Assembly: GCA_963845755.1 (NCBI GenBank) | Contig: CAWJTV010000012.1 | Location: 128,001-192,000 of the forward strand | DNA from: an uncultured Planctomycetota bacterium | GTDB taxonomy: Bacteria > Planctomycetota > Planctomycetia > Isosphaerales > Isosphaeraceae | Length of the DNA: 64,000 nt | Direction: 5' to 3' | Shown here: positions 1 through 58,183 of the stretch, piece by piece | Layout: each line of letters starts with the position of its first letter | Position numbering within the stretch: position 1 is the stretch's first letter | Notes under the pieces: generated by a model | What the model saw: only the letters and a program-made list of their open reading frames with translations | The model's database searches: none | Told to the model about the DNA's origin: nothing | Translations under genes and position numbers: made by a program

Positions 1-422
1 TCGACGATCGAGTCGCGGGTGTCGTGGGGGACCCAGGCCCCGGTCAGAGTTCCCCAATCTCTTTTTTTAGTTTGATATGTTCCTCCATCAATTCGGCGAC
101 GACCTCGTTCTTGCGCTGGAGCTTATCGCGCAGGGCGGCGATTGTCCGCTGGAGGTGGCCGTCGGTGGTGGCATTCTTGCGCTCGAAGGCGGCAGGGCCG
201 TTCTCGAAGAACTGCTTCTGCCAGACGTAGAACAGCGTGGGCGAGAGTTGGTGCTCGTCGCAGAGGTCAGAGACGGGGACGTGGTCGATCAGGTGCCGCC
301 GCAGGATGGCGACCTTCCCGACGGGCGTATAGTTCTTGCGAGGCTTTCGCATGGCGAGACTCCTGCCGAGTTATCATATAACTCGGGTGGGGCGTCTCTC
401 CATTTCCGTCTGAAGCAAGACA
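1..422 (-). mobile_element. IS3-family insertion sequence, left part (runs off window start)
   Basis: Minus strand starts TGTCTTGCTTCAGACGGAAATGGAG at 422 (TG end typical of IS3). OrfA is 44..352, with an A7G slippery motif at 61-68, and OrfB (..LTGAWVPHDTRDSIV) starts near 47. Confidence 0.85.
44..352 (-). CDS. IS3-family transposase OrfA (HTH + coiled coil)
   Basis: RKNYT..KVAILRRHL..VSDLCDEHQLSPTLFYVWQKQFFENG HTH; LRDKLQRKNEVVAELMEEH zipper. Confidence 0.9.
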   Translation of the reverse strand: MRKPRKNYTPVGKVAILRRHLIDHVPVSDLCDEHQLSPTLFYVWQKQFFENGPAAFERKNATTDGHLQRTIAALRDKLQRKNEVVAELMEEHIKLKKEIGEL

Positions 423-775
423 TCGCCGCCTGGCGCCTGGCCCGAAGGGTTTTCCCCGACGAAGGTGAAGACCACCAGTGCGTTCACGTGATCGTGGCCG
501 CGTGGGCATGGATCGCCGGTTCCGCAATGGCCCTGGGGTCCAGCGGGGCCCTTACGGGTATCGCGTTGATGGCCACGGTCGCCATCTCAGTGGGTCTGGT
601 CATCTACAAGGGTCGCCGAGTCGGAAAGGACAAAACGGACGGGACGCCCCCCGGCGATCGGGCCGACCTCGCCTGCCAGATCGTGAAATACCTGTTCTTA
701 GCTTACTTTGTAGTTTTTGTACTAAAGAAAACAGACGTTTGGTTTACCACCGAGCAGAGGTGGTCATGCGGATAG
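423..775 (+). pseudogene. Membrane protein remnant truncated by IS3
   Basis: Open frame with hydrophobic segments (VIVAAWAWIAG, IALMATVAISVGLVIY, YLFLAYFVVFVL) abutting the IS3 end; no start codon of its own. Confidence 0.35.
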
Positions 776-840
776 GAGCTACGCGGGGGTGTCAGCTCCT
801 CGACCTCAGCGTGGCCGAGTCGCCGCCGGGAATAGAAAAG

Positions 841-868
841 GTGACCTATAAATCAACCTTTACAGGAA
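841..868 (-). repeat. Array motif copy A (28-bp core only)
   Basis: Minus: TTCCTGTAAAG GTTGAT TTATAGGTCAC, matching consensus nnRGYGYAAAG-YCTGAT-TYATAGTTGAC. Confidence 0.55.
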
Positions 869-935
869 ATGGGTCAGCACGAAGAGTTCTTCGACCTGTC
901 AGGAGCCAGCCCTCTTTCCCTTGCCTTCGATGCCT

Positions 936-2992
936 CTAGCCCATGTTTGGGGTGGCGCATCGTAAGTCCTTGCGGCGCAAGGGTCGGATTTTCCATTAGT
1001 CACTACATGACCGTATTCTCCCCCTCCAGCGGCGCCGGAGGGCGTTGGTCCACCAGCTTCAGCGCCTTCAGCACCCTCCGGGCATCGGGACAGCCGCCGG
1101 CCAGCCCTCGCCGCTGCGGTTGGCCTTCCAGACGGAACGTCACCAGCCTCACGGTCGCCAATGCTTGCATGGCCCGCGACGGCGACAGATCCAACCCCGC
1201 CTCGTTGAGCCGGCGGCCCAGCAGGCGTTGAACCAACAACGCCAACGCCGCCACAAAAATATGAGCCTTGATTCGTATCTCGATCTGGTGATAGATCGGC
1301 CGCAGCGCCAGCACATCCTTGAGTTGGCGGAACCCGCTCTCGACCTCGGTCAATTCCTTGTACATCGCCACCGCGTCCCGCACGCTCAGCCCTTTCTCAC
1401 TCGTCATGATCACATATTTTCCCTCGATCTTCTTCTCACGTCCCAGCCGCGCCTCGCTCTCGGTGATCTCCAGCGTCCCATCCTTGAGTTTCCAATCGAA
1501 GTAGCGATAACCGTGATATTTCTGCATAATCCGCTCGACGGCCGCCCCGATCTTCTCGGGCCGCTTCAAGTTCCCCGCGGCGACGCGCCCCTTGAGCTTC
1601 TCCAGGCGCTGGCCGGCTCGCTCCATCGCCTGTTCCCGCTTCGCCTGCTCGTAGCCGCGGCGCTCGTCCGAGTCGATGACGATGACGCGCAGGTCGGGAT
1701 CTCCGGAGGCGACTTCCTGGGCACGGGTGCGCCGTGGGTTGGTCTTCCGTTCCTGGGTATTGATGCCCCCGGGGCAACGGACCCACTGGGTGTCGTCAAC
1801 GGCGTCGAGCCAACCGTCGATCTGGGCGTTGCGCCGCCGCTTGACGCCAACCAGGAACCCATGCTCGTCTTTCGTAATCGCCTCGATGTTCTCATCGGTG
1901 ACCATACCCCGATCACCGACGAAGACGAGCCGGCCGAAGGCGAACCGCTGGCGCAGGTCGCGGATGACGTCTTGGACCGTGGAATGGTCGATGCAGTTGC
2001 CCGCCCAGACATGATGAGCGATCGGCCAGCCGGCGACCATCACCACGCCGACGACCACCTGGACGTTCTGCGGCTTGCCATCGCGGCTGTAGCCGTGCTT
2101 GGCGAAGTCGCGCGGGCCGGCGCCCTCGAAATAGGTGCTGGTCATATCGTAGAGGACCAGGTCGGGCTTGAAGCTGAAGAGATCGCGAAGGCGGTGGTAG
2201 AGCGCCACTTCGATGCGATCTTTGGCCGCGTGGAGCTGGTCGAGGGTGCGGTACCAGGCGTCGAGCTGGCGGGGATGGACGCGGACCCGTCGGCGTTGGT
2301 GCCAATGAGGAACGAAGCGACGGCCCTTGCGGTCGCAGACGAAATCGGTCTCGAGCCAGCCGGCGAGCCCATGCTCACTGGCCGGGGCGATGAGCCGGTT
2401 GGCGACGAGCACGAAGGCGCGGTCGGCGAAGGGGACGCCCTTGGCGAGCCCGAGGTATTGGTCGAGGATCGCCCAGAGGCCGAGTTGGTCGAACAGGGCC
2501 CGAACGACGAGGATCGGCCCCCAGGTAGAGGCATCGATCACGTGAGGGTCGGCGGGATCGCCGGCGTCGCACTGGGCGTCGCCGTCGAGGAGCCGGCGGA
2601 GCTTGGGGAGCAGCTCGACGAGGAGATCCTTGCGCCCGAGGTCGGCGACGACACGTTGCTTGACCTTGCCGCCGTCGCGGTAAGCTTCGACGACGCGGAC
2701 GTATTCGTGGACGGTGCCGTTCTGGGAGCGGACTTTGACGGTTCTTGGATACATGACTGGTTGCTGGCATCGCTGGCGAGGGATGTCCGGAGATGCACCG
2801 CAATCATTATCACGACAGATTCTGGCGAAATCAAGGTAATTAATCGGAATTCAATTGGAAGTTCCCGCCTAGAGTTGTCACTACACTTTTGGGGCCGGCG
2901 AGACCACAACCCAAGCGAAAAGCCTGGGAAAATAGCGGTTTTTGCGCACAGGACCAGGCGGCCCCGGCTCCGTCACCCCAAACATAGGCTAG
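936..2992 (-). mobile_element. IS1634-family insertion sequence
   Basis: Terminal inverted repeats CTAGCCCATGTTTGGGGTG (936) / CACCCCAAACATAGGCTAG (2992) around a DDE transposase. CTAG may be a target duplication. Confidence 0.88.
1003..2754 (-). CDS. IS1634-family transposase
   Basis: YVRVVEAYR..KVKQRVVADLGR N-terminus; LYDMTSTYFEG, GYSRDGK, VGDRGM, YKELTEVESGFRQLK..LRPIYH motifs. Confidence 0.92.
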   Translation of the reverse strand: MYPRTVKVRSQNGTVHEYVRVVEAYRDGGKVKQRVVADLGRKDLLVELLPKLRRLLDGDAQCDAGDPADPHVIDASTWGPILVVRALFDQLGLWAILDQYLGLAKGVPFADRAFVLVANRLIAPASEHGLAGWLETDFVCDRKGRRFVPHWHQRRRVRVHPRQLDAWYRTLDQLHAAKDRIEVALYHRLRDLFSFKPDLVLYDMTSTYFEGAGPRDFAKHGYSRDGKPQNVQVVVGVVMVAGWPIAHHVWAGNCIDHSTVQDVIRDLRQRFAFGRLVFVGDRGMVTDENIEAITKDEHGFLVGVKRRRNAQIDGWLDAVDDTQWVRCPGGINTQERKTNPRRTRAQEVASGDPDLRVIVIDSDERRGYEQAKREQAMERAGQRLEKLKGRVAAGNLKRPEKIGAAVERIMQKYHGYRYFDWKLKDGTLEITESEARLGREKKIEGKYVIMTSEKGLSVRDAVAMYKELTEVESGFRQLKDVLALRPIYHQIEIRIKAHIFVAALALLVQRLLGRRLNEAGLDLSPSRAMQALATVRLVTFRLEGQPQRRGLAGGCPDARRVLKALKLVDQRPPAPLEGENTVM

Positions 2993-4215
2993 TGCTTTGT
3001 CACAGCTAAAAATTGGGGTTGGGGAAACCTCCGCGACCGTGGATGATACGGGGAACAAGGAGGCCCCCATGAACAAGAAGTACATTGTCCGGCTTACGGC
3101 TGAGGAACGGGACGAGTTGGCGGCCGTGATCAAGAAGTTGAAGGGAACCAGCGAGAAGGTTCGACGCGCCCAGATCCTGTTCAAGGCCGATGCGGACGGT
3201 CCGAACTGGACCGATCGTCGCATCGCCGAGGCGTTCGGATGCCGAACGCAGACCGTCGAGAACATTCGTCAGCGTCTCGTGGAGTACGGCTTTCGAGAGG
3301 CATTGGACCGCAGCAGGCGCCAGATGCCGCCGGTCGAGAAGCGACTCAACGGCGAACAGGAGGCGAAGATCATCGCCACACGGCTCGGGTCACCGCCCCC
3401 GGGTTATGCCAACTGGACGCTGCGGCTCTTAGCTCGAAAGGTGGTGGAACTGGGGATCGTCGAAACCGTCAGTTACGAGACGGTGCGGCGGACTCTGAAA
3501 AAAACGGGATGACCAACCGCAAGATCGAGTACTGGGTCATCCCGCCCGAGGCTGACGGTGAGTTCGTGGCCCACATGGAAGAGGTGCTGGAGACCTACGC
3601 CAAGCCTTACGACTCGATGCGGCCGATCCTGTCCATGGACGAACAGCCGGTGCAATTGCTGAAGGAGTCCCGCGTGCCGATCCCTGCCACGCGCCGACAC
3701 GCCAAGCGCGTGAACTACGAATACGAGCGTGCCGGGACGGCGAACATCTTTATGTTCACCGAGCCGCTGGCGGGCTGGCGCGAGGTGGCCGTCCGGGATA
3801 CCAAGACCAAGGTCGAACTGGGCGATCGAGATGGCCGCGCTGTTGGAGGGCCGTTATGCCAGTGCCGAGCGAGTGATCGTGGTATGCGACAACTTGAACA
3901 CGCACACCAAGGGTGCCTTCTACGAAGTCTTTGCACCGCCCCGTGCTCGCCAGTTGGTCCGCCGCATCGAGTTCTGCTACACCCCCAAGCACGGCAGTTG
4001 GCTGAACATCGCCGAGAACGAGCTCAGCTCGTTGACGCGGCAGTGTATAGCCGGCCGCCGCTTCGGTGATGCCCAGGCGCTGCGAGTGGAGACCACCGCT
4101 TGGTCAACCGACGTCAACAGCACCCAGCGCGGAGTGGATTGGCAGATGAAGATCGACGATGCCCGCTCCAAATTGAAGTCGATCTACCCCAAAATTAAGC
4201 TGTGACAGAGCACTA
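2990..4215 (+). mobile_element. IS630-family insertion sequence
   Basis: TA-GTGCTTTGTCACAGCT ... AGCTGTGACAGAGCAC-TA inverted repeats with TA duplication inside CTAG. Confidence 0.9.
3069..4205 (+). CDS. IS630-family transposase (programmed -1 frameshift at A7 3498-3504; extra indel near 3815)
   Basis: MNKKYIVRLT..WTLRLLA..VSYETVRRTLKK; MDEQP, YEYERAGTANIF, DNLNTH, YTPKHGSWLNIAENE. Confidence 0.88.
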
Positions 4216-4219
4216 GCCC

Positions 4220-6448
4220 TCAGCGCACGTCCCAGACGATGGCGCTGCCCCGGTGGAATCCGGTGAAGAGCTTGGTGCCGTCGGGTGAGAACGCCAGCAC
4301 GTAGGCCCGGTTGTCAACAGGTTCGAGCGTGAGGTACTGCCCACCAGTCGCGATGTCATAGAGGCGGATCGTGTCCTGGCCGAGATCGTCGCCGTACCGG
4401 ATGTCCGAGGTCGCCAGGGTGCGACCGCCGGGGGCGAGCCCAGGTGGCAGCCGTGCCGGTGCGGATGCCGGAACTTCCGGCGCATCAGGCCCGACTCGAC
4501 GTCCCACACGTAGACCCACTCCATCTGGCATGAGACCAGCGTGCGGCCGTCGGCGCTGAACGTGGCCTCCCACATGTCGGGCTTGCGGGGCTGCCCGGCC
4601 TTCTGCTCCTCCGGAGTCCGCCATTCGGCCAGGAATCGGCGCTGCTCGTGGCCGGTGAGAGCACTAAAGCGGATCACGTCGCCACCCCTCAGGGCCGCCT
4701 GGAACCAGGGCGTGTTGCCCGCGAATTGCATTCGGGCCACGGGAGGGAACCCGACCCGCTGATCCCGGGGGGGGATGGACCAACGGGTCCGCCCCGTCCC
4801 GACCTCGATCCCCAGGAAATGCGTATCGCCGTAGGCACCGTCCGAGGTGGCGATGACGACGATCCGCCCATCGGGCGCCATCGCCGCCGATCGGATCGCT
4901 TTCTGAGGGACCTCGCGCACCGTCCGGCCGCTGTCGGCCTCGTAGAATACGACGATCCCATGGTCCTCAGTCACCGGGTCATCGCGAATGCCGGCCGCGA
5001 CCACGAGCTTGCCGTCGCGCGAGAAGCACACAGACGCTGCGCGGGGGTTCCGCCCGATCGGGCTGACGACCGGTGCCAGGGGCTTATGCCAGATCAGCTT
5101 GCCGGTCGCGCCGTCCCAGACGCGCACGAGGCCGTCGAACTGGCCGACCGCAAGCCGGTCGCCCGATGGCGACCAGGCCGCCGAGGCGACATAGCCTACG
5201 GGCGTACTCTCGTCGTGGTGCAGCCGTCGGCCGGTCGAGACCTCGAAGAGGCTGATCGCGTTGGCGATCGGCATGGCGACGAGGCGGCCATCGGGCGAGA
5301 ACGCCGGCCGCCCGCCCGATGAGCCGGGTAGTTCAATCGTCCGCTCGGTCCAGCCGGTCGCAGCGTCGAGGATGCGAAGCCGGTTGTGGTCGGCCACCGC
5401 CACGCGCCGGCCGTCACGCGACAGCGCTCCGTAGCCGAAGCCGTAGTCCTCGTCGCCGTGGTAATCGGCGATGCGCTCACCGCTCGCGACGTCCCAGAAT
5501 CGGACCTCGCTCATCGCCACGTGCGAGTGCCGGCCCCGGAGCTTCGTCTCCTCGCGTCGCTTCGCGGTCTGCCCGGCCGACATGATCCGACGCCCATCGG
5601 GCGTCACCGCCACGCAGTTCAGCCGGGGATTGATCGACTCGTCCAGAGGCGTGCCGTGCGCCAGGGGATCTTGCGCAGGAGCCGGCCATCGCCGATCTGC
5701 CAGATGAAGAGTGTGGCATCGCCGGAGGTCCCCGCGACGAGCCGGGTCCCGTCGGGCGTGAACGCCAGACATCCGATGCCTTGCCGGCCCATGACGGTCC
5801 CCACGACCTTCGGTGCTTCGAGCTGGCCCGCCGCCGGGCGCGGTCGCGTCGAGAGGTCTCGAACGACTTCCGCAGGCTTCGCCACTCGCCGGAGGCGGAC
5901 GACCTCATCGCCCCCGATGGCGATCAGGCTGCCATCGGGAGAGAATGCGACCTCGTTGACCTCGTCTTCGCGCAGCCTCTCGCGGAACAAGAGCCGGTTG
6001 CCCGGCAGGTCCATAGCGCGACTTGGCCGTCGTATTCCCCCCAGAGCAGTTTCGTGCCGTCCGGTGAGAGCGCGAGCGACCCGACACCGCCCTCCCGATT
6101 CCCCGGCGCGACGATCTGCTTGACCTCCTGGCCGGTCCGCACGTCGAAGATGACGACCCGTGGACTCGCGGCGACGCCGCCCGCGACGGCGACCGAACGG
6201 CCGTCGGGCGAGAAGGCGAACACAGGGTGGAGGTCCTGCGCCCGCAGGTCGTCCGTGCCGATTCGCAGCAGCGCTCGCGGCGGTAGGGCTCGTTTGGCGG
6301 CGTCCGTCCGGGGCGGATCGCTCCGCTCTGCGGAGGCCGCACCGGGCGCGATTTGCGCCTCGGACTGCACACCGGGTGGCCCTAGGGCGAGAACCGTCAC
6401 CGCGCCCGTGATAGTCCGGATTGCAAGCCGCGCACGGACAAGCTGCAT
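4220..6448 (-). CDS. WD40-repeat beta-propeller protein (several frameshifts)
   Basis: Signal-like N-terminus, LPPRALLRIGT lead-in, repeated AFSPDG..WD motifs spread over ORFs 5924-6448, 5619-6014, 4213-5772 and 4220-4624. Confidence 0.85.
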
Positions 6449-6486
6449 GGCCTATTTCTCATGGAACCCTAAAAGGTTTGATCTCC

Positions 6487-6561
6487 GGATCACCCGTTCT
6501 ACGTCCAGGCATCGTTCCGCGCCACCTGACCGGCTCAACTATGGATCAGGCTTTGCGCTGA
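6487..6561 (-). repeat. Array motif copy B (about 75 bp)
   Basis: Core TCAGCGCAAAG CCTGAT CCATAGTTGAG (6534-6561), followed by cggtcaggtggcgcggAACGAT..gaacgggtgatcc. Confidence 0.85.
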
Positions 6562-6652
6562 AACGACGGTTGGACTCGGCGCCGCAAGACGAAATCGGTC
6601 CACACGAGGTGGAAAGTCGGGTGGGCTCTACCTACCGGCGGGAAGCCTTCTT

Positions 6653-6709
6653 CCCGCATCGTCCCGCACCCGACCGTCCGCGCCAACGATGAATCGGGCA
6701 ATGCGCCCG
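6653..6709 (-). repeat. Array motif copy C
   Basis: Core CGGGCGCATTG CCCGAT TCATCGTTGGC (6682-6709) plus cggacggtcgggtgcggGACGAT; 7 bp after the stop codon at 6717. Confidence 0.7.
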
Positions 6710-6716
6710 AAGGGAC

Positions 6717-7226
6717 TCATTTCGGCTCCAGCGGGTCGGGCTCGACGGTAAGCCAGGGGCGGGATGCGGCGGCCATATACTTCCGCCCGAGTGCGGCGTG
6801 GTATTCCGCCAGCTTTCGGTGAGGCTCCGTCACCCGTTGGGCGTAATTGGCCTGGATCTCGCGTCTCTTGTCCGCCATCGAACGCACTCTCGCTTGGGCT
6901 TCTCTGAAACGATCGTGCCCCTCGGGTTGAATCGGTTTCCCCTCAGGGAAACCGAACCATCGTTCGATCCCCCTGTCAAGTTCGTCGCTCGTCTCCGGAG
7001 GGGACGCCGGCACTTGGTTCGCCAATCCGTTGCCAGCGGCGAGAGTCGCGGCCGATGCAACCGAGCGGCGGTAGAATGCTTCCGCCTCGGCGTGCCATGT
7101 CGCCCTCGCGAGGCAACTCTCACGCTTCCGCTTGAGTCGTCTCGCCTCGCGATAGCCGCCGAACAGCAGCGCCACGACCGCCACCGCGATCATCCACCGC
7201 CCTGTCGTCATTCGGGGCAGTCGCAT
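6717..7226 (-). CDS. Hypothetical protein with R-rich/hydrophobic leader
   Basis: MRLPRMTTGRWMIAVAVVALLFGG...YHAALGRKY..AASRPWLTVEPDP, a planctomycete-type small protein pattern. Confidence 0.8.
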   Translation of the reverse strand: MRLPRMTTGRWMIAVAVVALLFGGYREARRLKRKRESCLARATWHAEAEAFYRRSVASAATLAAGNGLANQVPASPPETSDELDRGIERWFGFPEGKPIQPEGHDRFREAQARVRSMADKRREIQANYAQRVTEPHRKLAEYHAALGRKYMAAASRPWLTVEPDPLEPK

Positions 7227-7287
7227 GGCTCACGGCCCTCTCGTTCACACCCCACCAGCCTTTGCGGCTCACTCGTCCCCCGTCGCT

Positions 7288-7552
7288 TCACTCCGAATCC
7301 GGCCCGACCGCCAACCACGGCCGGGCCGCCCGCCCGTTGGTACATCCTCGCAAGCCTTTCGTTGTGCTCTGCAGCTCTCAGGTCCCCCGCGGGGCCTGCC
7401 GTGCCACGCAGATGATCGGCCAAGTTCTCATGGACCGCGGCCAGCCGCATGAATTGGGCCGCCCGCCGCAACATCACGAAGGCCCCGAGCAGCAGCGAGA
7501 CGGTTAGGACCGCCACCATCCACCGCCGCGTCGTCATCCGGGGTAGTCGCAT
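7288..7552 (-). CDS. Paralog of 6717..7226 (frameshift near 7330)
   Basis: MRLPRMTTRRWMVAVLTVSLLLG..HNERLARMYQRA, then ARPWLAVGPDSE in the shifted frame. Confidence 0.65.
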
Positions 7553-7563
7553 CGCTGAAGCCC

Positions 7564-7812
7564 TCATCTCACCCCACTCACTCCCCCAGCCGCCCCGAGC
7601 CCTTCGCCTGGTCGAGCGCATTGCGGCGTTCGGCTTCCGCCTGCGCCGCCGCCACGGCTCGATTCGCCTCCGCCGCTGCCCGCAGGCGCGTACGCCGCGG
7701 CCTGCCGTTCCGCCGCCAGCCTCTTCGTTCGCTCGGCCACCAGCGCCGCGATGATGACAAGGAGCATCAGAGTACGGATGCGGACGCGCCAGCGGGGACG
7801 TTGCTGTTTCAT
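7564..7812 (-). CDS. Small protein with R-rich/hydrophobic leader (frameshifted tail)
   Basis: MKQQRPRWRVRIRTLMLLVIIAALVAER.. Confidence 0.6.
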   Translation of the reverse strand: MKQQRPRWRVRIRTLMLLVIIAALVAERTKRLAAERQAAAYAPAGSGGGESSRGGGAGGSRTPQCARPGEGLGAAGGVSGVR

Positions 7813-7854
7813 GGTCGGGATCTCGACGCCGTTTGCCTGAAAGGTCTCAGCTCT

Positions 7855-7931
7855 GGATCACCCGTTCCGGCTCACCGCCATAGTCCCGCGCCCGACTGTT
7901 CGCGCGAGCTATAAATGGGACGTTCCGATCA
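7855..7931 (-). repeat. Array motif copy D
   Basis: Core TGATCGGAACG TCCCAT TTATAGCTCGC (7904-7931) plus cgaacagtcgggcgcggGACTAT..ggaacgggtgatcc. Confidence 0.75.
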
Positions 7932-7939
7932 CGCGCTCA

Positions 7940-8380
7940 TCAAATGGCCGGCCCATCGCGCCAGACGCCTTTGTCGTCCTCTTGCTTGGTCTTCCCCGTC
8001 TGCTTCTGAGAGCAGCCCAAGGCGAGAGTGCCAAAGCAGCCGATCACTCGCATCACCCAGCCGGCGAAGACGCCTGTCATCATCCCGACGACCGCCCCGA
8101 AGCTCAGGAACAAGATCGAGAAAAGTAAGCTCAGGAACAATTCACCGAACGTGTTCGGATAGCGAGGCGGCGTTGGGGAACGAGATGTTCAGGCGGTTAT
8201 CATGGAGATCGAGTGTCACCAGACGATGCAATGGTCGTTGATTCTTCGGGATTCCTCGAACTGAAAGACCGAGCGGGCCGCCGAAAGTATGCCGGCAGCG
8301 ATCTCCGAGCGCAACGGAACCCTGCCAGAGGTCACCACGCCAGACAATTACGATGGGATGAGTCTCATCGAGCATACGCA
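7940..8380 (-). CDS. Small membrane protein (start uncertain, probably frameshifted)
   Basis: Hydrophobic LFLSLLFSILFLSFGAVVGMMTGVFAGWV in ORF 7940..8140; upstream part in another frame. Confidence 0.4.
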
Positions 8381-8418
8381 TGGATCGTACCTGATACGCC
8401 GTGGCAAGGGTCGATACT

Positions 8419-8494
8419 GGATCACCCGTTACGCGTCCCGCCATTGTCCCGCGCCCGCCTGTCCGGGCCAACTATGAATCAGACTTTGCGCTCA
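8419..8494 (-). repeat. Array motif copy E
   Basis: Core TGAGCGCAAAG TCTGAT TCATAGTTGGC (8467-8494), whose first TGA is the stop codon of the upstream gene; then cggacaggcgggcgcggGACAAT..taacgggtgatcc. Confidence 0.88.
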
Positions 8495-8896
8495 CAGCGT
8501 TGGGGAGAGTCTCGGGGGACGACCCGCCAGTGCGTCCTCATACGCCTCTCGGATGATAGGGGTGACCGGGTAAAGAGGCCCGTGAACCATCGACAACTGC
8601 TCTCGGATCTCATTCGGGCTTACCACACCGGAGGCAATCGACCCGCACATCACTTCGTAGGCAATCGCATAGAGTTCCGCCTCCGGTAAGACTTCCGACA
8701 TATCTTTCAGGAACAGCGTCCTGCCTACGGCCTCGAATTCCTTCCGCTCCCGCTCTATTTTCTGCCGTTCCTCCTCGGAGAGGAGGTGGTCTATGGTCGT
8801 CTTGGGAAAGAGCTTCTCGAAGGCATCGTCATCCAGCCAGACGAGACGACCGCCAGAGGGGGCGTCGTTTGGCCCTGGGGACTCGGGTGTCAACAT
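8492..8896 (-). CDS. Hypothetical protein
   Basis: Protein-like composition (LSEEERQKIERERKEFEAVG..PIIREAYEDALAGRPPR); GGAGG-like RBS upstream of ATG 8896. Confidence 0.7.
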   Translation of the reverse strand: MLTPESPGPNDAPSGGRLVWLDDDAFEKLFPKTTIDHLLSEEERQKIERERKEFEAVGRTLFLKDMSEVLPEAELYAIAYEVMCGSIASGVVSPNEIREQLSMVHGPLYPVTPIIREAYEDALAGRPPRLSPTL

Positions 8897-8947
8897 GGGC
8901 CTCCCCTCGATCAAAGCGCTTGGCGCCCCGGACATCACCCGGAGCAT

Positions 8948-8975
8948 CTGATCTATAGATCAGACCTTACGCTCA
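8948..8975 (-). repeat. Array motif copy F (core only)
   Basis: TGAGCGTAAGG TCTGAT CTATAGATCAG; again begins with the TGA stop of the upstream gene (8973-8975). Confidence 0.75.
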
Positions 8976-9712
8976 ATCCTCGCATTCGTACCGCCACTCG
9001 TCGGACAATTTCAGATCCAAGTACAGGTTGTAGAGCGGACCGCTGGCACGCCCAGTGGGCGCGCGCCGGGGGAGGCGCCGACTCGGACGAACCCAGAGCG
9101 ACCCGATGGGTCCCGGTCGATGATCAGGCCGACATTGCCACTGGAGGGATCGACTGCCGTGGCGACTACGCGGAACAACCCGGCCCATTCCGGGCTGGTG
9201 ATCCCCTGCCCGGCGGCAACACGATTGGCTAGGCGATCCAAAGCCCGCGCGGAGGCGAGGAATGCCAGGCGTAGCGGCCAAGGGGTGAGGAGCATCGTGA
9301 GCGGAAGGATGCCCGATGCGACAACCAACGGCCAAGCCCAGAACGTGGCGCGTTGTGATCTCGTTTCTCGCCGCGTCGCTGTGGTCGCCCAGGCGGCACC
9401 GGCACTGAAGACCAGCGGAAAGGCCAAGAGCCAGACGAGGAGCATCAGGAAGACGCCGCCCATACAGAGTCGGTGAATGCACAGGCCGGCGGTCGCGATG
9501 TTGCTCAAGGCGGCCACGAGCCCGAAACAGGCGGCCGAGACCCGTCGGAAGCCATGGAAGATCCACCACAGTACGCCGATCAGGGCGAGGTAAGCCAGTC
9601 CGAATGCGACGAACAGGCCGATTGGTGAACGCGCGGCGACGAGGAGTCCAGCCGCCGCCGCGACCACGATCATGAGATTCCAGATCGTGAACCGAACGCG
9701 GGGCCATCGCAT
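8973..9712 (-). CDS. Multi-pass membrane protein with R-rich leader (frameshift near 9045)
   Basis: MRWPRVRFTIWNLMIVVAAAAGLL, several TM segments, WPLRLAFLAS; C-terminus LYNLYLDLKLSDEWRYECED in the adjacent frame. Confidence 0.75.
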
Positions 9713-9739
9713 GGCTCACTCCTGCCACGTCTCATCACT

Positions 9740-9814
9740 AATCGCCCGTTCCACGTCCCGGCCTCGTCACGCGACCGTCTGACCGGGTCAACTATAATTC
9801 AGACTTGTCACTGG
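9740..9814 (-). repeat. Array motif copy G
   Basis: Core CCAGTGACAAG TCTGAA TTATAGTTGAC (9787-9814) plus ccggtcagacggtcgcgtGACGAG..ggaacgggcgat. Confidence 0.82.
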
Positions 9815-9822
9815 AAGCTCGC

Positions 9823-10359
9823 TCAGCGGAGAAGGGCAAAGCTGCGATACAGGGCGACAACTAGCACGATCCAAGCGAGCCCGATTACGAATCCGAGCCA
9901 GTCGATCCAGGAACGCTCAAATCGCCACCGCCCTCCCAGAATACTCGCCGACCAGGCACCGATCACAGCGAAGCCAGGACTTTGGTAGAAGTTGTGTGAG
10001 AACGGCGTTATCACGAAGTCAGGTCGCGCCCCCCCGACGATCTGCAAAACCATTAAGGTCGTTTCCAGAGCGATGGCGCATGACATGGCGACGATCGCTG
10101 AGGTGCCCGGATAGTCTGCCAGAAGCCTTACAGGATGTCGGGGAGTTCGAAGCCGTAAGACGAGGCAGGCGACGGTGCAAGCGGCAAGCATGGGGGGGAC
10201 ATAGAGGAGAGAATCTCTCACGTATCCGAATCGGTCCGAGAGCGAAACGAACCTCGGGGGAGCGGGAAGGAAGCTCGTCAAGCTCGTTCGGCATAGCGCC
10301 AAGCCAACCGCAATCGCCGCCACTAACAAGACTGCGTCGAGGAGGTTGAATCTTCGCAT
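9823..10359 (-). CDS. Membrane protein with R-rich leader
   Basis: MRRFNLLDAVLLVAAIAVGLA..LRLRTPR..PG..GFAVIGAW..GRWRFERSWIDWLG, a planctomycete-type membrane family pattern. Confidence 0.8.
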   Translation of the reverse strand: MRRFNLLDAVLLVAAIAVGLALCRTSLTSFLPAPPRFVSLSDRFGYVRDSLLYVPPMLAACTVACLVLRLRTPRHPVRLLADYPGTSAIVAMSCAIALETTLMVLQIVGGARPDFVITPFSHNFYQSPGFAVIGAWSASILGGRWRFERSWIDWLGFVIGLAWIVLVVALYRSFALLR

Positions 10360-10402
10360 GGCGGTCCGATCTACGACGGCCTCTTGGCAACTATCGCCTC
10401 TA

Positions 10403-10477
10403 GTCCACCCGTTCCAGCTCCGGCCATCGTCCCGCGCCCACCTGTCCGGGTCAACCATGACCCAGGCTTTACACTTT
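10403..10477 (-). repeat. Array motif copy H
   Basis: Core AAAGTGTAAAG CCTGGG TCATGGTTGAC (10450-10477); TTGACC-N17-GACGAT; ..ggaacgggtgga. Confidence 0.85.
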
Positions 10478-10547
10478 GGACTATGGCTCTTCAACCCCAC
10501 AATCCAGGAGCGGTCGCCAGGCAGATCGATGGGCAGAGCACGGCGAT

Positions 10548-11299
10548 TCAGCGGACGCGGCCGGACTTTCCGAGGCGTTCGAGGGAGTCTCTGGCCACCT
10601 CGGTAGGCTGGGCATCGGGATGGCCGGTGGCCATGTCCCTGAGGATGGCGATCGCCTCCGGGGTGCCGATGTGCTCCAGCAGTGCGATGGTGCGCACGAT
10701 TCGGGTCCACTTCTTCTTGGGGTTGCGCCGATTCGGTTGAGGTCCTCGATCTTGTGGTCGGCCCTCAAGAAACTCTTAAGGGTGCCGAAGTAGAACATGC
10801 CGTTCCGGCTCCTCCCGAAATTGACCTCCTGATCCCCGAACCAGCCGGCCTCCTTCCCGCTCATCACCTCGACCATCCGTTTCCTCGCCGGGCTCTCCTT
10901 GTAGCGATCCATCAACGTCTCGAGGTCCATCGCCAGCCGCGGATCAAAGTATTCGAGTTCCTCGAAGGCCGGCCTCCAGACTTTCTCGTTCTCGTTCCCC
11001 AGCTTTAGTAGCAGCGCCCGTACTGCTCCGGGCGTGATCTTCAGCGGCTTCATCTTCGTCTTGAGGAACGCGACCGCCTTCTCGCGCCGGTCAGCCAGGC
11101 TGAGCAGGGCGCGTATGGCGTCGGTCTCACCCTTCTCCAGATCCGCCCACCAGACATCCGTCGTGCCTGGGCTGTCCCTCGGGCTCATGCCCGGATTGGC
11201 CGCCGGTGGGCGATGCTCAACAGGCTGGATCGTGAACGCAAGCAGCGCTAGGAACAACAATGGTAGGAGTCGCATCATCTGGTTCCTTGTACGCCTCAT
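10548..11299 (-). CDS. Secreted helical/HEAT-like hypothetical protein (frameshift near 10725)
   Basis: Signal peptide MMRLLPLLFLALLA; WADL..AVAFLK; shifted-frame tail RTIALLEHIGTPEAIAILRDMATGHPDA..ARDSLERL. Confidence 0.7.
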
Positions 11300-11333
11300 C
11301 GTCTACTTGGGGCGCGGCCGCCAGATGGCAAGT

Positions 11334-11361
11334 CTGAGTTCTAAATGAGGCTTTACACCGG
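11334..11361 (-). repeat. Array motif copy I (core only)
   Basis: CCGGTGTAAAG CCTCAT TTAGAACTCAG; left arm GTGTAAAG identical to copy H. Confidence 0.55.
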
Positions 11362-11470
11362 GGATTCGACGTAAGTCCCGAAACGAAGCCTCGGATTTCG
11401 TTGAGCCGCGACGGTCGAACGCTGCCAGGTTTCGCGGATACGAGCCTGGCCCGACCGTGCGGACCGACGG

Positions 11471-14400
11471 TCATCGGCGAGGCCCTGGTTCTTCGACGGT
11501 TCGCGCGACGGAAGGATCCCAGAGCTTGATCGTGGTGTCGCGACTGGCAGTGAAGAGGATTCGGCCGTCGGCCGAGAAGGCGACCCAGTCAATCGCATCG
11601 TGATGACCGCGGAAGGTGGCTCGCAGCTTTCCGGAGGGCGTGTCCCAGAGGCGGAGCACCTCGTCCGCTCCGCCCGCGGCAAGGGTCTTGCCGTCGGGGG
11701 AGAAGGCCAGGTAGAGGGCCGGCCCGGACAGCGATTTCAGCGTGACGAGGGGCGACCTTGCCATGACGTCCCAGAGCATGACAGTCGCGGCCTCGGTCGC
11801 CGCGGCCAGAGTCTCGACCATCGGGGGTGAATGCCAGTCGCGTGACCCGACCATCGGGCACGGGCAGGACCGCGAGCCGTCGACCGGTGGCGAGGTCCCA
11901 GAGCCGGACCTCGCCCGAGCCGGACGTCGTGATGGCACCGCTCCCGACCTTGCTGCCACCGGTGGCAAGGGTCTTGCCGTCGGTGCTGAGCACCACCATG
12001 TTCATCCCGCCGGGATGCTGGAAATTGGCCCTCGCCTTGCCGGTCTGCACGTCCCAGAGCGTCACCAGGCCCGCCGCGTTGGCCCCGACCAGGGTCTTGT
12101 CATCGGCCGAGAACTGGACGAGATCCACGCCCCCCTGTCGCCCCGACGGAACGACCGTGGCCTTGAACGTGCGGGTGTCCCAAAGCTTCACGACCCCGGC
12201 GCGACTGGTGGTCGCCAGGGTCTTGCCGTCGTGGCTGAATTCGAGCGCGACGACCTCGCCGTTGTGCCCGGAGAGCATCGCACGCTCGTGGCCATCGTCG
12301 AGGCTCCAGACCTTCGCCTCGACGGTCGGCGGGGCGTCGGGTTGGCGCTGGGGAGCGGGCTTGCTCTGCGCGGTGGGCTTGGCCACGGGAGCCGGCCGGG
12401 CCTGCGCAGCGGGCTTGGCCGCGGGAGCCGGCTGGGGGCGGGCACCAGCTTCGAGGCCTTGAGCTTTGGGTGCTCAGGGCCTTCACCTTTAGCCGCCGGG
12501 CCAGCCGGGCGGGCGGGAGCGGCGGGCGGCTTGACGGCGGCCCGATTGGCGCGGATGCCGGCCGCCAGCAAGCGGCCGTCCGGTGAGATTCCCATGCAAC
12601 GGACGCGCGACGTCCTCACTGCCGAGCGTCAATCGCACGCGGCCAGTTCCGATGTCCCAGACCTTGATCGTTCCGTCCGCGCCGCGCGTGGCCAGTGTCT
12701 TGCCGTTGTCGAGGACCGCCAGGCTCCGCACGATATCGGCGTGACCCCGAAGGGTGGCTCGCTCCTGGCCCCGGGACGAAGCCGCCGTGCGGACCAAGGA
12801 CCGGCCTGCCGGCGACACGTCCCAGGCCTCGATCCGCCGTTCGCCGGCCGTGTACAGCGTCTTGCCGTCGGGGTCGAACGCCAGGCAAGAGACGCCTTCG
12901 CCCGCCGACGCGCCGGGCAAGGTGAGTGTCGCGGCGAGGCGGCCCGGGGCCACGTCCCAGAGCGATACGGTCGGGTCGCCATCGCATGACGAGGCGAGCC
13001 GCTTGCTGTCCGGCGCGAATGCGAGAGCCGTGATCGGCACGATGGGCCCGCGGAGCGTCGCGCGCTCGGTCCATGTGGCGACGTCCCAGAGCCGGACGGT
13101 GCGATCCGCCCCGCTGCTGGCCAGGATCTTGCCGTCGGGGGAGAAGACGACGGACAGGGTCGCCCGGGTGTGACCTTTCAAGTTGGTGAAGGGCACGCCG
13201 GCAGCCACGTCCCAGACGGTCACGATGCCGTCGGCGCCCGCGGTGGCAATCGTCGAACCGTCGGGGGAGACGGAAATCGATCGGGCCACGCTCCTCGATT
13301 TCGATTTGAAGGGCCGGAGCGGTTGCTTCGCGTCCAGTCCAAACAAGATAGGCGGCCCGCCGGCCATCGCCAGCGACCGGCCGTCGGGGGTGAAGGCAAT
13401 GACCCGGGCGCCGGACGGGTTGACCGGCAGTTGGCCCATCTCGTGCAGGGTGGCGGTATCCCAGAGCTTGAGCAAATTCGAACCCGAGCCGACGGGGAGC
13501 ATGGCCAGGATCTTGCCGTTGGGAGAGAGGGCAAGCTGAACGTCCTGGGCTGCGAGCAGGATGGGATCGCCCCGCTCCCGGCCCAGTTTCGGGTCCCAGA
13601 GCTGAACGTCGCCATTGGTCGTCGCTGATGCGAGCACCTTGCCATCGCGCGAGAGCACCAGGGATCGGACTTTCGCCTCCACGCCCGCGAACGGCCGAGG
13701 CGCGAGCTGGGCGGCCACATCCCAAAGCTTGAGCTGGCCGTCGCCCCCGCCGGTGGCGAGCGTCTGACCATCGCCGGCGATGGCCATCGCCGCGAGCGGT
13801 GTCGGGTGCGCCTCGGTGTGGAGGGCCTGAGCGTGGCCGTCGGCCGCATCCCATCGGCGGAGCGAGCCGTCGGCACCGCCGGTGAACAGCGACTGGCCGT
13901 CGGGCAGGTATGCAACCGCACCGACCGATCCCGAGCGAGACCGCAGCGACGCCCGACCCGACGCCTTGGCGAGGTCCCAGAGCCGCGTCGTGCCATCGCG
14001 GCTCGTCGAAGCGAGGGTCTTGCCGTCGGGTGCGAACGCCAACGCGTCGATCGCGTCACGATGCCCGTCGAGAGAACGGCGAAGCGAGCCTCTAGGCAGG
14101 TCCCACACCTTCACTGTCCAATCGACCGATCCTGTGGCGAGCGTCCGGCCATCGGCGGCGAACGCCACGCAGGTGATCCCGCTGGTGTGCCGGGCCAGGG
14201 TCGTTCGCTCGGCCGCCTTGGCGACGTCCCAGATGATCGCGGCGGCATCCCGACTCCCCGATGCGAGGCTCTTGCCGTCGGGCGCGAACGACAGGCAGGT
14301 GATCGCACCCTCGTGACCCTTCAGCACGGCCCGCTCACGGCCCGCGGCCAGGTCCCAGAGAGTGACGACTCGACCGTCACCGCCGAAGGCCATGGTGACG

Positions 14401-31743: not shown

Positions 31744-32385
31744 GTGACCTACCTTGAGAAGCCCGAGATCGAGGCCATACTAGCGGCCCCCGATGTCCGC
31801 ACGGCTCAGGGGTTTAAGGACTACGCGGTGCTTCTGTTTCTGTACAACACGGGCGCCCGGGCGGATGAGGCCGCTCACGTGTTGATCGGCGATCTTGAAC
31901 TCGGACCCATGCCAAAACGAGACATCTCTGCCGTCCTCATCCGGGGCAAAGGCGACAAGCGGCGACGTTGCCCCTTATGGGCCAGGACGGTCACTGAGTT
32001 GGTCTCGTTCATCGCCAACAGTAGGCCCGAAGAGCATGTTTTCCTCAACCGCCGTGGAGAACCGCTGACCCGCTTCGGTGTGCACGCGCTTGTCGAGCGC
32101 CACGCTCGAAGGGCAGCGGCGAAGTTACCCTCGCTGGCGAGCAAGCGCGTCGGCCCGCACACGATCCGGCACACGACGGCAACGCATCTCTTGCGGGCCG
32201 GAGTGGACATCAACACGATCCGAGCATGGTTGGGGCACGCTTCACTGGCCACCACGAACATGTACGCGGAAGTCGATCTGGAGATGAAGGCGAGGGCCCT
32301 GGAGACCTGCGAAATCAAAGGGGAGCGGGGCCGGAAGGCGTGGCGCCAGAACGCGGGCGTGATGGAGTTCTTGAGAAACCTGTAG
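31744..32385 (+). pseudogene. Tyrosine recombinase catalytic domain only (RIT third-recombinase-like), 5' truncated
   Basis: LYNTGARADE, RGKGDK, HTIRH, AGVDINTIRAWLGH, TTNMYAEVDLEMK; no N-terminal core-binding domain. Confidence 0.8.
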
Positions 32386-55795: not shown

Positions 55796-56338
55796 ATGCC
55801 TCGAACCGCAAGAGCTTGCTCGGCCGGATACACCTACCATGTCCTCAATCGCGGCAACGCACGTGCCGAGGTGTTCCACAAGTCCGACGACTACGACGCG
55901 TTCGTCGAGATGATGGCCGAAGCCTCCCTCCGCACCCCGATGCGCATCCTGGCCTACTGCCTCATGCCCAATCACTTCCATCTGGCGCTCTGGCCCCGCG
56001 CCGACGGCGACCTCAGCCGCGGGATGCATTGGCTGATGACCACCCCAGTGCGCCGCTACCTGCGACACTATCACTCCAGCGGCCATGTGTGGCAAGGCCG
56101 GTTCAAGGCGTTCCCGACCGAGGAAGATGAGCGAGACTGGGTCGAGGGCGTCAACATGGCGATGACCGAGGCCGAAGTGGAGCAGGTGCGCGAATGCGTG
56201 CGCCGCGATCGGCCGTACGGCTCGGCGGCCTGGACGACAGCGACCGCCCGGAGCCTGGGGCTGGAGTATAGTCTCCGGCCCCGCGGTCGTCCGCCAGCCA
56301 CGGACCCGGCCACGCCGAACGGGAAAGGTCCCTGTTGA
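55796..56338 (+). pseudogene. REP-associated tyrosine (HUH Y1) transposase with internal deletion
   Basis: YHVLNRGN, AYCLMPNHFHL, GHVWQGRFKAF; the following Y..RNP catalytic segment is absent. Confidence 0.8.
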
Positions 56339-56608: not shown

Positions 56609-58183
56609 ATGGCTACCAAGTCCCCGTCGAAGAACCGTCGCCCGTCGCAGCCGCATGCCCTTCATAAGCCTCGGGGGGTCATTCACCCGCGCGTCCAAGC
56701 GGTCGGACCGGAGCACTTCGGCTTGGTGTGCGTCGATTGCGCCAAGGCACGCTCCCGGATGATGTTCGCCGACTTCTACGGCCGAGTCCTGCTCGAGCCG
56801 ACCACCGTCGAACACAACCGATCCGACTTCGAGACCGCCGTGACGTCGGTTCGCGCGGCCATGGCCCGGCACGGCATCCGGGAGGTGATCGTGGTCGTCG
56901 AGCGCACCGGTCGCTATCACGGCCCGGTCCAGCGCAGCTTCCGCAAGGCGGGGTTCGAGGTCCGCATCGTTCATCCTTACACCACCAAGCAGTATCGACT
57001 CCCCGCCGACCCCGGCAACAAGACCGACGACACCGACCTCTCCGCCATCCACCGCGCCGCCGTCAACGGCTTCGGCCTGCTGGAGCCCGAACCCGACCCG
57101 GTCTATGCCCGACTCCAACTGCTGGCCAGGCACCGCCGCACCTCGGTGCAAAAGCGAGTCGTCCTCCAACAGCAGATGCTCGAGCATCTTCAATCGTTCA
57201 TGCCAGGATACTCGAAGTGCGTCGGCGATCTCTTCGGTTCTCCGGCCATCCTCTGGGTGGCCAGGGACCTCGGCTCGGCCGCGGCGATCGCCCAGATCGG
57301 CCTGGCCGGCTTGAGCCAACAGGTTCGACAGGCCGGCCTCCGAGTGTATCGGTCCACCCTGGAAAAGATCGTCGCTTGGGCCCGGTCGGCACCGTCGGCC
57401 GAGGAACCGGCGTCGCTCCATCACCGCATCTTCCTGGAGCTCGACGCCGACCAGGTCGCCAAGGCTCAAGCCATCCAGGCGGTCGAGGGTGACCTGGCCG
57501 GGCTCTTGGCCGGGACGCCCTACCTGCTCCTGCTGGGCATCGTCGGGATCAACGTGGTCTCGGCCGCCGAGTTCGCCGGCGAGATGGGGCCGATCGAGCG
57601 CTACACCAAGGCCCGAGCGATTACGGGCCGCGCCGGGTTGTTCCCCTCGCGGTACCAGAGCGACCAGGTCGATCGTCGCGACGGTGCGCTGGTCCGACAC
57701 GCCAATCGCGACCTGCGATCCGCCATCCTCACGATTGCAGATAACTTGATCAAATGCAATGATCACTTCGCGGTCCTGGCCGCGGGATGGCGGCTCAGGG
57801 GCAAGGACGCCCGTAGCGTCCGTGTCCAGGTCGCCGGTCGGTTCTGCCGGATCGCCTACCAGATGGTAGCCGGTCGGATGACCTTCCAACACCCCTGCGC
57901 TCAGCAGCGGGATCCCATCCTCGATAAACTGATCAGGTTTTCTCTTGAGCATATCATTCCACCTGATCAGCTCTCGCGAAACCTCGACGCCGCAGTGGCC
58001 CAACTCCCGCACACGGCGCATCGTGAGGAAGCGGCCGCTGTGGCGGAGGAGCTGGCTCGGGTCCCGAAATCGCGGGGAACGGGACCGCGCCAGCTAGACA
58101 CGATTCTCCCCGCCATCTTGGCCAAACTGGAGGGGAACCTGGTAAGATCACCGGAGTCAGGGGAGGCTGATCCCACAGAGTGA
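56609..58183 (+). CDS. IS110 DEDD recombinase with C-terminal extension
   Basis: VDCAK, VVERTGRYH, NKTDDTD, IVGINVVSAA..AGE, AGLFPSRYQSD; GGAGG RBS at 56595. Confidence 0.92.
   Translation: MATKSPSKNRRPSQPHALHKPRGVIHPRVQAVGPEHFGLVCVDCAKARSRMMFADFYGRVLLEPTTVEHNRSDFETAVTSVRAAMARHGIREVIVVVERTGRYHGPVQRSFRKAGFEVRIVHPYTTKQYRLPADPGNKTDDTDLSAIHRAAVNGFGLLEPEPDPVYARLQLLARHRRTSVQKRVVLQQQMLEHLQSFMPGYSKCVGDLFGSPAILWVARDLGSAAAIAQIGLAGLSQQVRQAGLRVYRSTLEKIVAWARSAPSAEEPASLHHRIFLELDADQVAKAQAIQAVEGDLAGLLAGTPYLLLLGIVGINVVSAAEFAGEMGPIERYTKARAITGRAGLFPSRYQSDQVDRRDGALVRHANRDLRSAILTIADNLIKCNDHFAVLAAGWRLRGKDARSVRVQVAGRFCRIAYQMVAGRMTFQHPCAQQRDPILDKLIRFSLEHIIPPDQLSRNLDAAVAQLPHTAHREEAAAVAEELARVPKSRGTGPRQLDTILPAILAKLEGNLVRSPESGEADPTE

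Follow-up and report, generated by a model that had tools for sequence, protein, structure and literature searches.

We analysed a 64,000-nt stretch of DNA, hereafter the window, from an uncultured planctomycete of the family Isosphaeraceae (assembly GCA_963845755.1, contig CAWJTV010000012.1, positions 128,001 to 192,000), near the start of which a repeated motif separates a series of co-oriented genes. We consider it probable that the copies of this motif are co-oriented, lox/FRT-like recombination sites of ~34 bp that bound single-gene cassettes stacked in arrays. We observed directly how the sites are built, that they are clustered and co-oriented, that cassettes are shared and where the junctions lie. 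In what follows, G000 is the 14.27-Mb genome that contains the window, the other G-numbers are related genomes, and C- and L-numbers denote contigs and loci, respectively.

A first-pass annotation of the window had listed nine copies of a 28-bp motif, with cores at 841, 6534, 6682, 7904, 8467, 8948, 9787, 10450 and 11334 (here copies A to I). All nine were confirmed, and all are on the minus strand. The consensus proposed at that time recovered four of the nine copies with up to three mismatches and had no match in 100 shuffles. According to a weight matrix built on the left arm and centre of the site, six copies are strong (841, 6534, 8467, 8948, 9787 and 11334; 20-25 bits) and three are weak (7904 and 10450, 13.2 bits each; 6682, 8.2 bits). 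The inventory was nevertheless incomplete: B, D, E, G and H are each followed, 56-58 nt downstream, by an additional copy, and these five have position 1 at 6502, 7870, 8434, 9754 (weak) and 10417. The window contained 15 matches of at least 13 bits, 14 of them within 832-11358. Twelve of these 14 are on the minus strand, and the two on the plus strand are the palindromic partners of A and F.

Throughout the genome, simple sites are imperfect 34-bp palindromes, many of which score on both strands. They consist of 13-bp arms, GTGTAAAGCCTGA and TCAGGCTTTACAC, around an 8-bp centre that reads TCCATAGT or TCTAGAGA. Copies A, F and I are such single sites, located 0-25 nt before an open reading frame (ORF). 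Outside the long elements described below, 51 sites had at least 8 of 13 complementary arm pairs, versus 26 when right halves were dealt to other sites, a control that is not a clean null. The 28-mer is thus part of a longer palindrome, and the 11-6-11 geometry of Xer/dif sites assigned to it gives way to 13-8-13. The motif is also unlike the dif-like family of this genome, ACGTCCGATAAT-N6-TTATGTTCGCT, the comparison being with that family and not with a mapped terminus dif. XerCD, suggested earlier as the operator of the system, is not favoured because the motif differs from these dif-like sites.

Copies B, D, E, G and H are conserved over ~110 nt. Each of these long elements comprises a half-site (site 1), a conserved 57-nt unit that the simple sites lack, and a second, full site (site 2). 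The previously described core corresponds to site 1 of each; site 2 had been missed. In site 1, a regular left arm and centre are combined with TTGGCGCGGACAGG in the place of the right arm; site 2 is partly palindromic. The long element is always 5' of an ORF on the same strand and ends roughly 15-40 nt before the start codon, often with a GGAG-like box; for B, D, E, G and H in the window the distance was read as 20-50 nt. The blocks that are best conserved among 63 copies from five genomes are G.AA....TGA..CATAGTTG, CGGACA, GGGCGCGGGACGATG and GGAACGGGTGATCCAG. Mean column identity across genera is ~67%. An internal repeat, G.AA.GGGTGATCCA(T/G)AG, reappears 57 nt downstream. The 5' and 3' halves of the element were 2-12 nt apart in 25 of 30 matches to the 5' half, and in none of the 30 did a gene lie between the halves.

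The 57-nt unit is G-rich, carries three direct GCGGGAC repeats and contains TTG(G/A)NN, 17 nt and GACGAT, in which TTG and A.. AT are conserved at 89-98%. Tandem units occur at C15:120799-120913 and C5:521855-521933, and copy C in the window is a truncated one. Because the unit lies between two sites and is sometimes tandem, it appears to behave as a mini-cassette without a gene of its own, invariably placed immediately upstream of a gene. Judging from its sequence, its role may be that of a promoter (TTGNNN-17 nt-GACGAT) or of accessory repeats to which a protein binds (GCGGGAC). Four GGG runs on the sense strand of the unit (e.g. window 8401-8475), separated by loops of 3, 8 and 9 nt, could form a G-quadruplex.

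To assess secondary structure, 30 of the 46 good copies were folded as RNA and as DNA on both strands. They folded no better than shuffles (z from -0.36 to 0.02), and RNAalifold returned 0 pairs for 27 copies. It follows that the element is not a hairpin of the attC type, nor is it a structured leader. The sites also have no RYYYAAC/GTTRRRY pair, in agreement with the earlier view that they are not attC; the integron of the same genome has canonical attC sites. Three further candidates were rejected. A structured RNA or riboswitch had no Rfam match up to E=1 in window 1-14000 and no consensus fold; a leader peptide starting at a conserved ATG conflicts with the absence of that ATG in 5 of 27 copies and with indels that are not in threes; and the spacings, read by eye, do not fit an extracytoplasmic function (ECF)- or sigma-54-type promoter.

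A profile of the long element detected 31 copies in G000 (nhmmer, E<1e-3), which are clustered on ten other contigs as well. In a search of 41 related genomes with a sequence-only covariance model, the element was found in seven: G000 (37 copies), G001 of the same genus (34), G012 (43), G008 (15) and G015 (11), with single weak matches in G021 and G014. The five clear element-bearing genomes measure 10.8-14.3 Mb. The site matrix yielded 131 matches of at least 16 bits versus 24-41 with three column-permuted matrices, and 72 of at least 18 bits versus 10-11. The 70 accepted sites of G000 form 17 clusters and are co-oriented in 46 of 53 adjacent pairs, about half of the co-oriented pairs being the two sites of one long element and the orientation of near-perfect palindromes being uncertain. 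The sites of this genome thus form mostly co-oriented clusters and are not scattered singly. An exact-pattern scan of 185,579 species genomes found 23 stretches; these come from 10 assemblies whose titles read uncultured Isosphaeraceae or Planctomycetota, and a scan of metagenome contigs returned 22 contigs with 12 different record prefixes. Searches of viral contigs and plasmids gave no match to the element.

Blocks comprising a gene and its leader, 88-96% identical, recur in different arrays and genera next to unrelated neighbours; other matched DNA between these genomes is 65-86% identical (stretches of at least 400 nt). An all-against-all comparison of the arrays gave 18 blocks of at least 180 bp and at least 86% identity that link different array regions. 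Added loci contributed four and two further blocks, one of each set ending in a site centre. G000 (C5) and G001 (C33) have in common a 1002-bp block (93%) with unrelated flanks. Its homology begins within one element, at ..CTAT^AGTTGG.., and extends into the next as far as ..CATCTAT^ (carets mark the switch). A block on C41 of G000 matches G012 over 664 bp (93%) and G001 over 601 bp (92%), again with unrelated flanks; it follows a long element in one copy and a simple site in another, with the switch at CCAG^AATCC. Similar blocks link G012 with G015 (787 bp, 91%) and a metagenome contig with G012 (560 bp, 93%). Within G012, two cassettes that adjoin each other in L039 are separated in L034 by exactly one additional site-to-site unit (~840 bp), which recurs in G015 at 91% identity. 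In the window, the F cassette has a duplicate on C39, with its left end at CTATAG^ATCAG in site F; the two copies diverge after CATAGTTG of site 1 of E. These data bear out the proposal that the motif delimits cassettes: blocks recur in other arrays and genera with their ends at the site centre, and the content of the arrays differs among relatives, which do not have identical synteny.

Junctions were read from printed alignments; the automatic junction caller was noisy. Among the 36 ends of the first 18 blocks, 25 touch a site and 11 have no site nearby (three such blocks are unrelated repeats). Homology switches at site positions 14-20 in 15 of the 25. Lower bounds were at least 16^17 in four ends and at least 14^15 in one, and upper bounds were at most 16^17, 17^18, 18^19 or 19^20. 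The crossover is bounded to 16^17-19^20, i.e. C^AT(A/G), the central 3-4 bp of the site. Two central ends from the added loci bring the count to 17 of 27 site-touching ends, which are not all independent, one cassette having been seen in three genomes. The first-pass annotation had proposed to look for breakpoints in a 6-bp spacer, YCTGAT; the crossover maps instead to TY^ATAG, inside what had been named the right arm. Sequence identity across the junctions extends over only 5-10 nt, and we therefore judge it too short to have caused assembly mis-joins or chimeras.

These junctions are most simply read as the result of exchange at a single point, which lies in the centre of a short palindromic site with an orientation. 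As homology switches at one point of a palindromic site, we attribute the mosaics to site-specific recombination of gene cassettes, and we regard such exchange in this clade-restricted site family as reasonably likely. A cassette would span from centre to centre, comprising a right arm, a short leader, a gene and the next left arm. A site-specific recombinase encoded elsewhere would cut the central 2-4 bp of the site and would excise, insert and shuffle cassettes, and genomes of this Isosphaeraceae clade would exchange cassettes in this way. Junctions in the middle of the centre agree with a serine recombinase that cuts the central dinucleotide or, by analogy with integrons, with a single strand exchange, and agree less well with a Cre-like enzyme, which cuts at both edges. 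How the exchange proceeds, which class of enzyme performs it and what the 57-nt unit does are what we infer from these patterns. We give somewhat less than an even chance to a fuller version, in which this is a second gene-capture system beside the classical integron. It would use short 13-8-13 double-strand lox-like sites, a recombinase acting in trans (not IntI and probably not XerCD) and its own gene-less 57-bp promoter cassette, positioned ahead of the captured genes. Its cargo would be accessory genes, most of them for membrane-anchored and secreted proteins, carried from one genus of soil Isosphaeraceae with giant genomes to another.

Several observations weigh against cassette exchange by such an enzyme. 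A central switch is lacking in ten of the 27 site-touching ends: it is displaced ~6 nt to the left in two, falls on the outer border of the left arm in two whose partner lacks a site, and lies past the right arm, at the start codon, in one; the other five are unplaceable, both partners bearing similar long elements. One central end is bounded at 19^20 or beyond, in conflict with other ends. The right arm of site 1 pairs at 4.06 of 13 positions, about random, and a symmetric dimer would find only a half-site there. A 57-bp circle would be too small for excision of the unit as such. All genomes used are metagenome-assembled. Reads of four soil runs, which gave short, low-depth contigs, yielded no supported joint at a site, no excised circle and no strain-level cassette indel; one weak joint, 7229 to 7879 (side 21), lay away from the site centre. 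The tyrosine recombinases nearest to the arrays of G000 are 1.3-20 kb away and belong to different families, and a PF00589 search found none adjacent to the arrays of G001, G008, G012 and G015. A small serine recombinase encoded on C6 does not follow the element phyletically: close homologues occur in genomes without the element, and these homologues have no such site within ~1.5 kb.

The same data bear on a different account, which we consider unlikely, in which the element is a mobile promoter, a shared promoter and 5' leader that brings numerous unrelated accessory genes under the control of one regulator, and the mosaics arise by homologous recombination or gene conversion between ~110-nt modules. 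The position of the long element, always upstream of a same-strand ORF and near its start codon, is as expected of a promoter, and so are the highly conserved TTG(G/A)NN-17 nt-GACGAT and the retention of ~67% sequence identity across genera without any fold; the five unplaceable block ends, which run through long elements, could also be of this origin. A scan with a simple consensus, however, found no sigma-70-type promoter in 6300-11600, and simple sites A, F and I bound cassettes likewise without the 57-nt unit. Junctions cluster in 3-4 bp of the site centre even in pairs of a long element with a simple site, which share only ~20 nt, too little for homologous exchange. A regulon would also leave unexplained the gene blocks that are 91-95% identical across genera. 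For the 57-nt unit, the promoter and cassette readings can both hold; the alternative is exclusive only in denying site-specific exchange.

The palindromic form of the sites raised the possibility of a selfish repeat of the repetitive extragenic palindrome (REP) or miniature inverted-repeat transposable element type, spread by a transposase (e.g. a Y1 enzyme of the REP-associated tyrosine transposase, or RAYT, type) and doubling as a 3' RNA hairpin, with mosaics due to hairpin fragility. Simple sites are indeed imperfect palindromes right behind stop codons, and at two block ends (the end of block 4 and the start of block 16) the partner lacks a site, as if one had been added beside the gene. 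G000 has 10 Y1_Tnp matches, none of which adjoins a site cluster. An IS200-like Y1 gene lies ~570 bp past the last element of a G001 array (L040:757-1437). REP and bacterial interspersed mosaic elements, by comparison, have a RAYT gene flanked by the palindromes, and their copies are dispersed singly in intergenic DNA. The grouping of 70 sites into 17 co-oriented clusters differs from single dispersal, site 1 of the long element is not palindromic, and shuffled sequences fold about as stably as the elements, in RNA and in DNA form (z about -0.3 to 0 for 30 of the 46 good copies). Moreover, insertion of a palindrome would not explain one gene block flanked by different right halves that switch at the centre. 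We consider this explanation quite improbable.

Returning to cassette exchange by a recombinase acting in trans, we searched for the enzyme. G000 has 43 tyrosine-recombinase matches, and an Xer-like pair is encoded at C34:357572-358573 and C33:301921-303231. The absence of an integrase adjoining the window array, as annotated earlier, was confirmed: the nearest PF00589 match is at window 31750-32277, ~20 kb off. The suggestion of a conserved neighbouring integrase was not borne out, since no recombinase is consistently linked to the arrays; two array-proximal tyrosine recombinases are not conserved in all element-bearing genomes, and Pfam searches of 207 array ORFs revealed no recurrent recombinase. 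No Y1_Tnp or IS110 transposase is adjacent to an array in G000. The C6 serine recombinase, a Hin/resolvase-type protein of 193 aa, is encoded 240 nt from a simple site, an adjacency found at only 1 of the 17 clusters.

G000 also contains a classical integron on C3 (L063:4736-14196), with at least eight canonical attC sites (GCCTAAC...GTTAGGC, ~75 nt) upstream of an intact intI (L063:13204-14196, at C3:161203-162195; TIGR02249, 484.9 bits against a cut-off of 265). IntI was rejected as the enzyme: it is above the cut-off in 13 of the 41 relatives, without regard to the presence of the element. For the same reason among others, we think it very improbable that the system is a divergent classical integron, in which the sites would be unusual attC or secondary sites for this IntI and the arrays would be clusters of attC sites lacking integron-integrases (CALINs). 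The layout of the arrays is identical to that of an integron, and all five genomes with many elements have IntI-like matches. However, the matches in G001, G008, G012 and G015 are partial or below the cut-off, and only G000 among the 13 genomes above it holds many elements. The intact IntI is on another contig, beside attC sites unlike those of the arrays, which have no conserved hairpin. In addition, the start of block 1 and the ends of blocks 9 and 11 place the crossover left of position 19, and not at G^TT.

An attC site is an imperfect hairpin with the boxes R'' (RYYYAAC) and R' (GTTRRRY), and crossover occurs between the G and TT of R'. The Isosphaeraceae system works like an integron or CALIN, yet it differs in three defining properties: it has no attC, no linked intI and no crossover at G^TT. 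An intI beside attI at the head of the array is not needed in a CALIN. It resembles integrons and CALINs in its co-oriented arrays of mostly single-gene cassettes, mostly of unknown function, with almost no spacer DNA, and in the occurrence of the same cassettes in different arrays and genomes with junctions at one point of a repeated site. As with CALINs, no integrase adjoins its clusters, which lie at scattered places in the genome. By contrast, its sites are ~34-bp palindromes of the double-strand type, conserved in sequence, not 60-140-nt hairpins conserved in structure; they lack R'' and R' boxes; the conserved DNA is mainly 5' of the gene; and IntI is neither linked nor correlated.

The sites of plasmid dif (pdif) modules are 28 bp long (11-6-11), resemble the host dif and alternate in orientation. 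The present sites are 13-8-13, co-oriented and unlike the dif-like family of the genome, and their arrays are found on contigs as long as 848 kb, not on small plasmids. Otherwise, according to reports on the Acinetobacter modules and their XerC/XerD sites (PMC6449649, PMC13141974, PMC5790767), those modules are likewise gene units bounded by short core-type sites with no dedicated recombinase beside them, are common to several replicons and end at the sites.

The geometry of the simple sites and of site 2 is that of loxP and FRT, in which 13-bp inverted arms surround an 8-bp asymmetric centre, and here too an asymmetric centre sets the orientation. Unlike in the Cre and Flp systems, we found no Cre- or Flp-like enzyme, many copies are degenerate, and the junction bounds are mid-centre and not at the edges of the centre, so that a 2-bp stagger or a single strand exchange fits at least as well. 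The sites of small serine recombinases (hix/gix, res site I) are similar in being imperfect palindromes, and the junction bounds are compatible with their exchange at a central dinucleotide; the present sites are longer, at 34 bp versus 26-28 bp. The outer arm motif TGTAAA..CC is reminiscent of gix/hix half-sites.

Overall, the family of lox-like sites is real and clade-restricted; its sites probably bound mobile gene cassettes, in a variation on integrons and dif modules. In the literature, consulted in part, we found no prior description of such sites in Planctomycetota, which does not prove that there is none. Among systems in which site-specific recombination builds arrays of promoter-less genes, only integrons are, to our knowledge, well understood. 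The dif modules of Acinetobacter illustrate that other short sites can play a similar part. Co-oriented lox-like sites with cassettes common to several genera would be a third layout beside these two. The host phylum has 10-14-Mb genomes rich in unexplained accessory genes, and the classical integron of G000 allows a direct comparison within one genome. If correct, our reading would help to explain the growth of these genomes, and it would provide a new family of recombination sites with a recombinase to find as well as a catalogue of mobile planctomycete genes.

The features of the window are listed below.

Table. Sites, elements and cassette genes of the array in the window (PWM, position weight matrix score in bits; IS, insertion sequence; E, nhmmer E-value).
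Feature	Position	Strand	Details
Conserved 125-nt non-coding stretch from site A centre	723..849	-	
Site A, simple 34-bp	832..865	-	CTGTAAAGGTTGA-TTTATAGG-TCACCTTTTCTAT; PWM 25.0; 8/13 arm pairs; core 841
Site A, putative crossover	850^849	-	
Two abutting ISs inside the last cassette	930..4216	.	Pfam DDE_Tnp_1 and HTH_32
IS1634-like element	930..2992		3 genomic copies with these ends
IS630-like element	2989..4216		at least 6 genomic copies with these ends, 99% identity
WD40 cassette gene	4213..6448	-	ORFs 5924-6448 and 4213-5772; Pfam WD40; downstream of element B
Long element B	6457..6566	-	site 1 6525-6558, site 2 6469-6502; E 1e-25; PWM 23.7, 18.1
Element C, truncated, no gene	6646..6712	-	degenerate site 1 6673-6706; PWM 8.2
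Three small ORFs between D and C	6717..7812	-	7564-7812, 7208-7621, 6717-7226; no Pfam family
Long element D	7827..7936	-	weak site 1 7895-7928, site 2 7837-7870; E 2e-24; PWM 13.2, 25.9
Cassette ORFs	7940..8381	-	8142-8381 (79 aa), 7940-8140 (66 aa); no Pfam family
Long element E	8390..8499	-	site 1 8458-8491, site 2 8401-8434; E 5e-27; PWM 23.6, 24.5
F cassette	8411..8971	-	gene 8492-8947; duplicate at G000:C39:106893-107453, 93.4% identity
Site F, simple	8939..8972	-	18-bp perfect palindrome core TCTGATCTATAGATCAGA; PWM 22.3 minus, 14.9 plus
Cassette gene, multi-pass membrane-like	9011..9712	-	233 aa; no Pfam family
Long element G	9710..9819	-	site 1 9778-9811, weak site 2 9721-9754; E 1e-24; PWM 20.0, 12.3
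Cassette gene (MRRFNLLD...)	9823..10347	-	174 aa; no Pfam family
Long element H	10373..10482	-	site 1 10441-10474, site 2 10384-10417; E 2e-25; PWM 13.2, 23.5
Cassette gene, signal-peptide-like N-terminus	10481..11299	-	272 aa; no Pfam family
Site I, simple 34-bp, first of array	11325..11358	-	GTGTAAAGCCTCA-TTTAGAAC-TCAGACTTGCCAT; PWM 21.2; 8/13 arm pairs

As annotated earlier, the intervening genes are co-oriented and mostly unrelated: BLASTP similarity was detected in only 2 pairs among 11 window ORFs, and the genes are not tandem paralogs. Pfam searches of the window array genes returned no family except for the WD40 gene. The start ATG of that gene, at 6448, lines up with other cassette starts. 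Its 3' end is cut by the IS630-like element, the end of which supplies the stop codon of ORF 4213-5772. With both ISs removed, the WD40 frame lies ~64 nt from site A, close to the 75 previously estimated. The spacing of B and C is as short as described (148 nt start to start), and the interval is not an ordinary empty cassette: element C matches profile positions 3-69 only (nhmmer E 1e-11) and so holds only the first part of the 57-nt unit. The 57-nt unit of element D has a 1-nt insertion, and two of the three ORFs between D and C have the N-terminus MRLPRMTT.RWM in common. With respect to stop codons said to abut the motif, the TGA at 8492-8494 does so; the stop at 8973 belongs to an ORF (8973-9728) that is probably not a real gene, coding-type G+C at third codon positions being found in the rival ORF 9011-9712. 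About 80 nt around site I recur in G001 at 76-86% identity.

In the larger set, the 101 proteins encoded downstream of elements comprised 59 singletons, nine pairs and three larger clusters with 12, 9 and 3 members. The Pfam matches of the 207 array ORFs (57 + 150) were to LRR, TPR, WD40/PD40, CarboxypepD_reg, DUF1559 and a few enzymes. Many cassette proteins (window 6717-7621, 9011-9712, 9823-10347 and related loci) open with MR(L/V)PR(M/V)..RR.M..VA..A. This common, membrane-anchor-like N-terminus may be a sorting signal on otherwise unrelated proteins.

The dif-like family, also written ACGTC(C/T)GATAAT-N6-TTATGTTCG(C/G)T, has at least six copies in G000 (C24:7800, C40:96669, C40:123497, C40:131793, C41:370851 and C39:272946). 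Contig C40 bears several dif-like sites together with several tyrosine-recombinase matches, which suggests Xer-dependent or integrase-borne elements. Elsewhere in the window, 31744-32385 encodes a tyrosine recombinase that belongs to a multi-copy family and has 66-72% identity with the copies on C6 and C40, and 55826-56143 and 56729-59234 contain a Y1 transposase match and two IS110-type transposase genes; all are at least 20 kb from the array.

The G+C content of the array is 0.59-0.63, versus 0.69-0.72 in the flanking WD40 genes. The non-coding stretch that begins at the centre of site A is 91-93% identical to C6:46805-46945 and C39:204451-204577. This family ends in a hix-like 26-bp palindrome, GTAAATCAAAC-GTGG-GTTTTCTTTAC in the C6 copy, which precedes the gene of the 193-aa Hin/resolvase-type recombinase.

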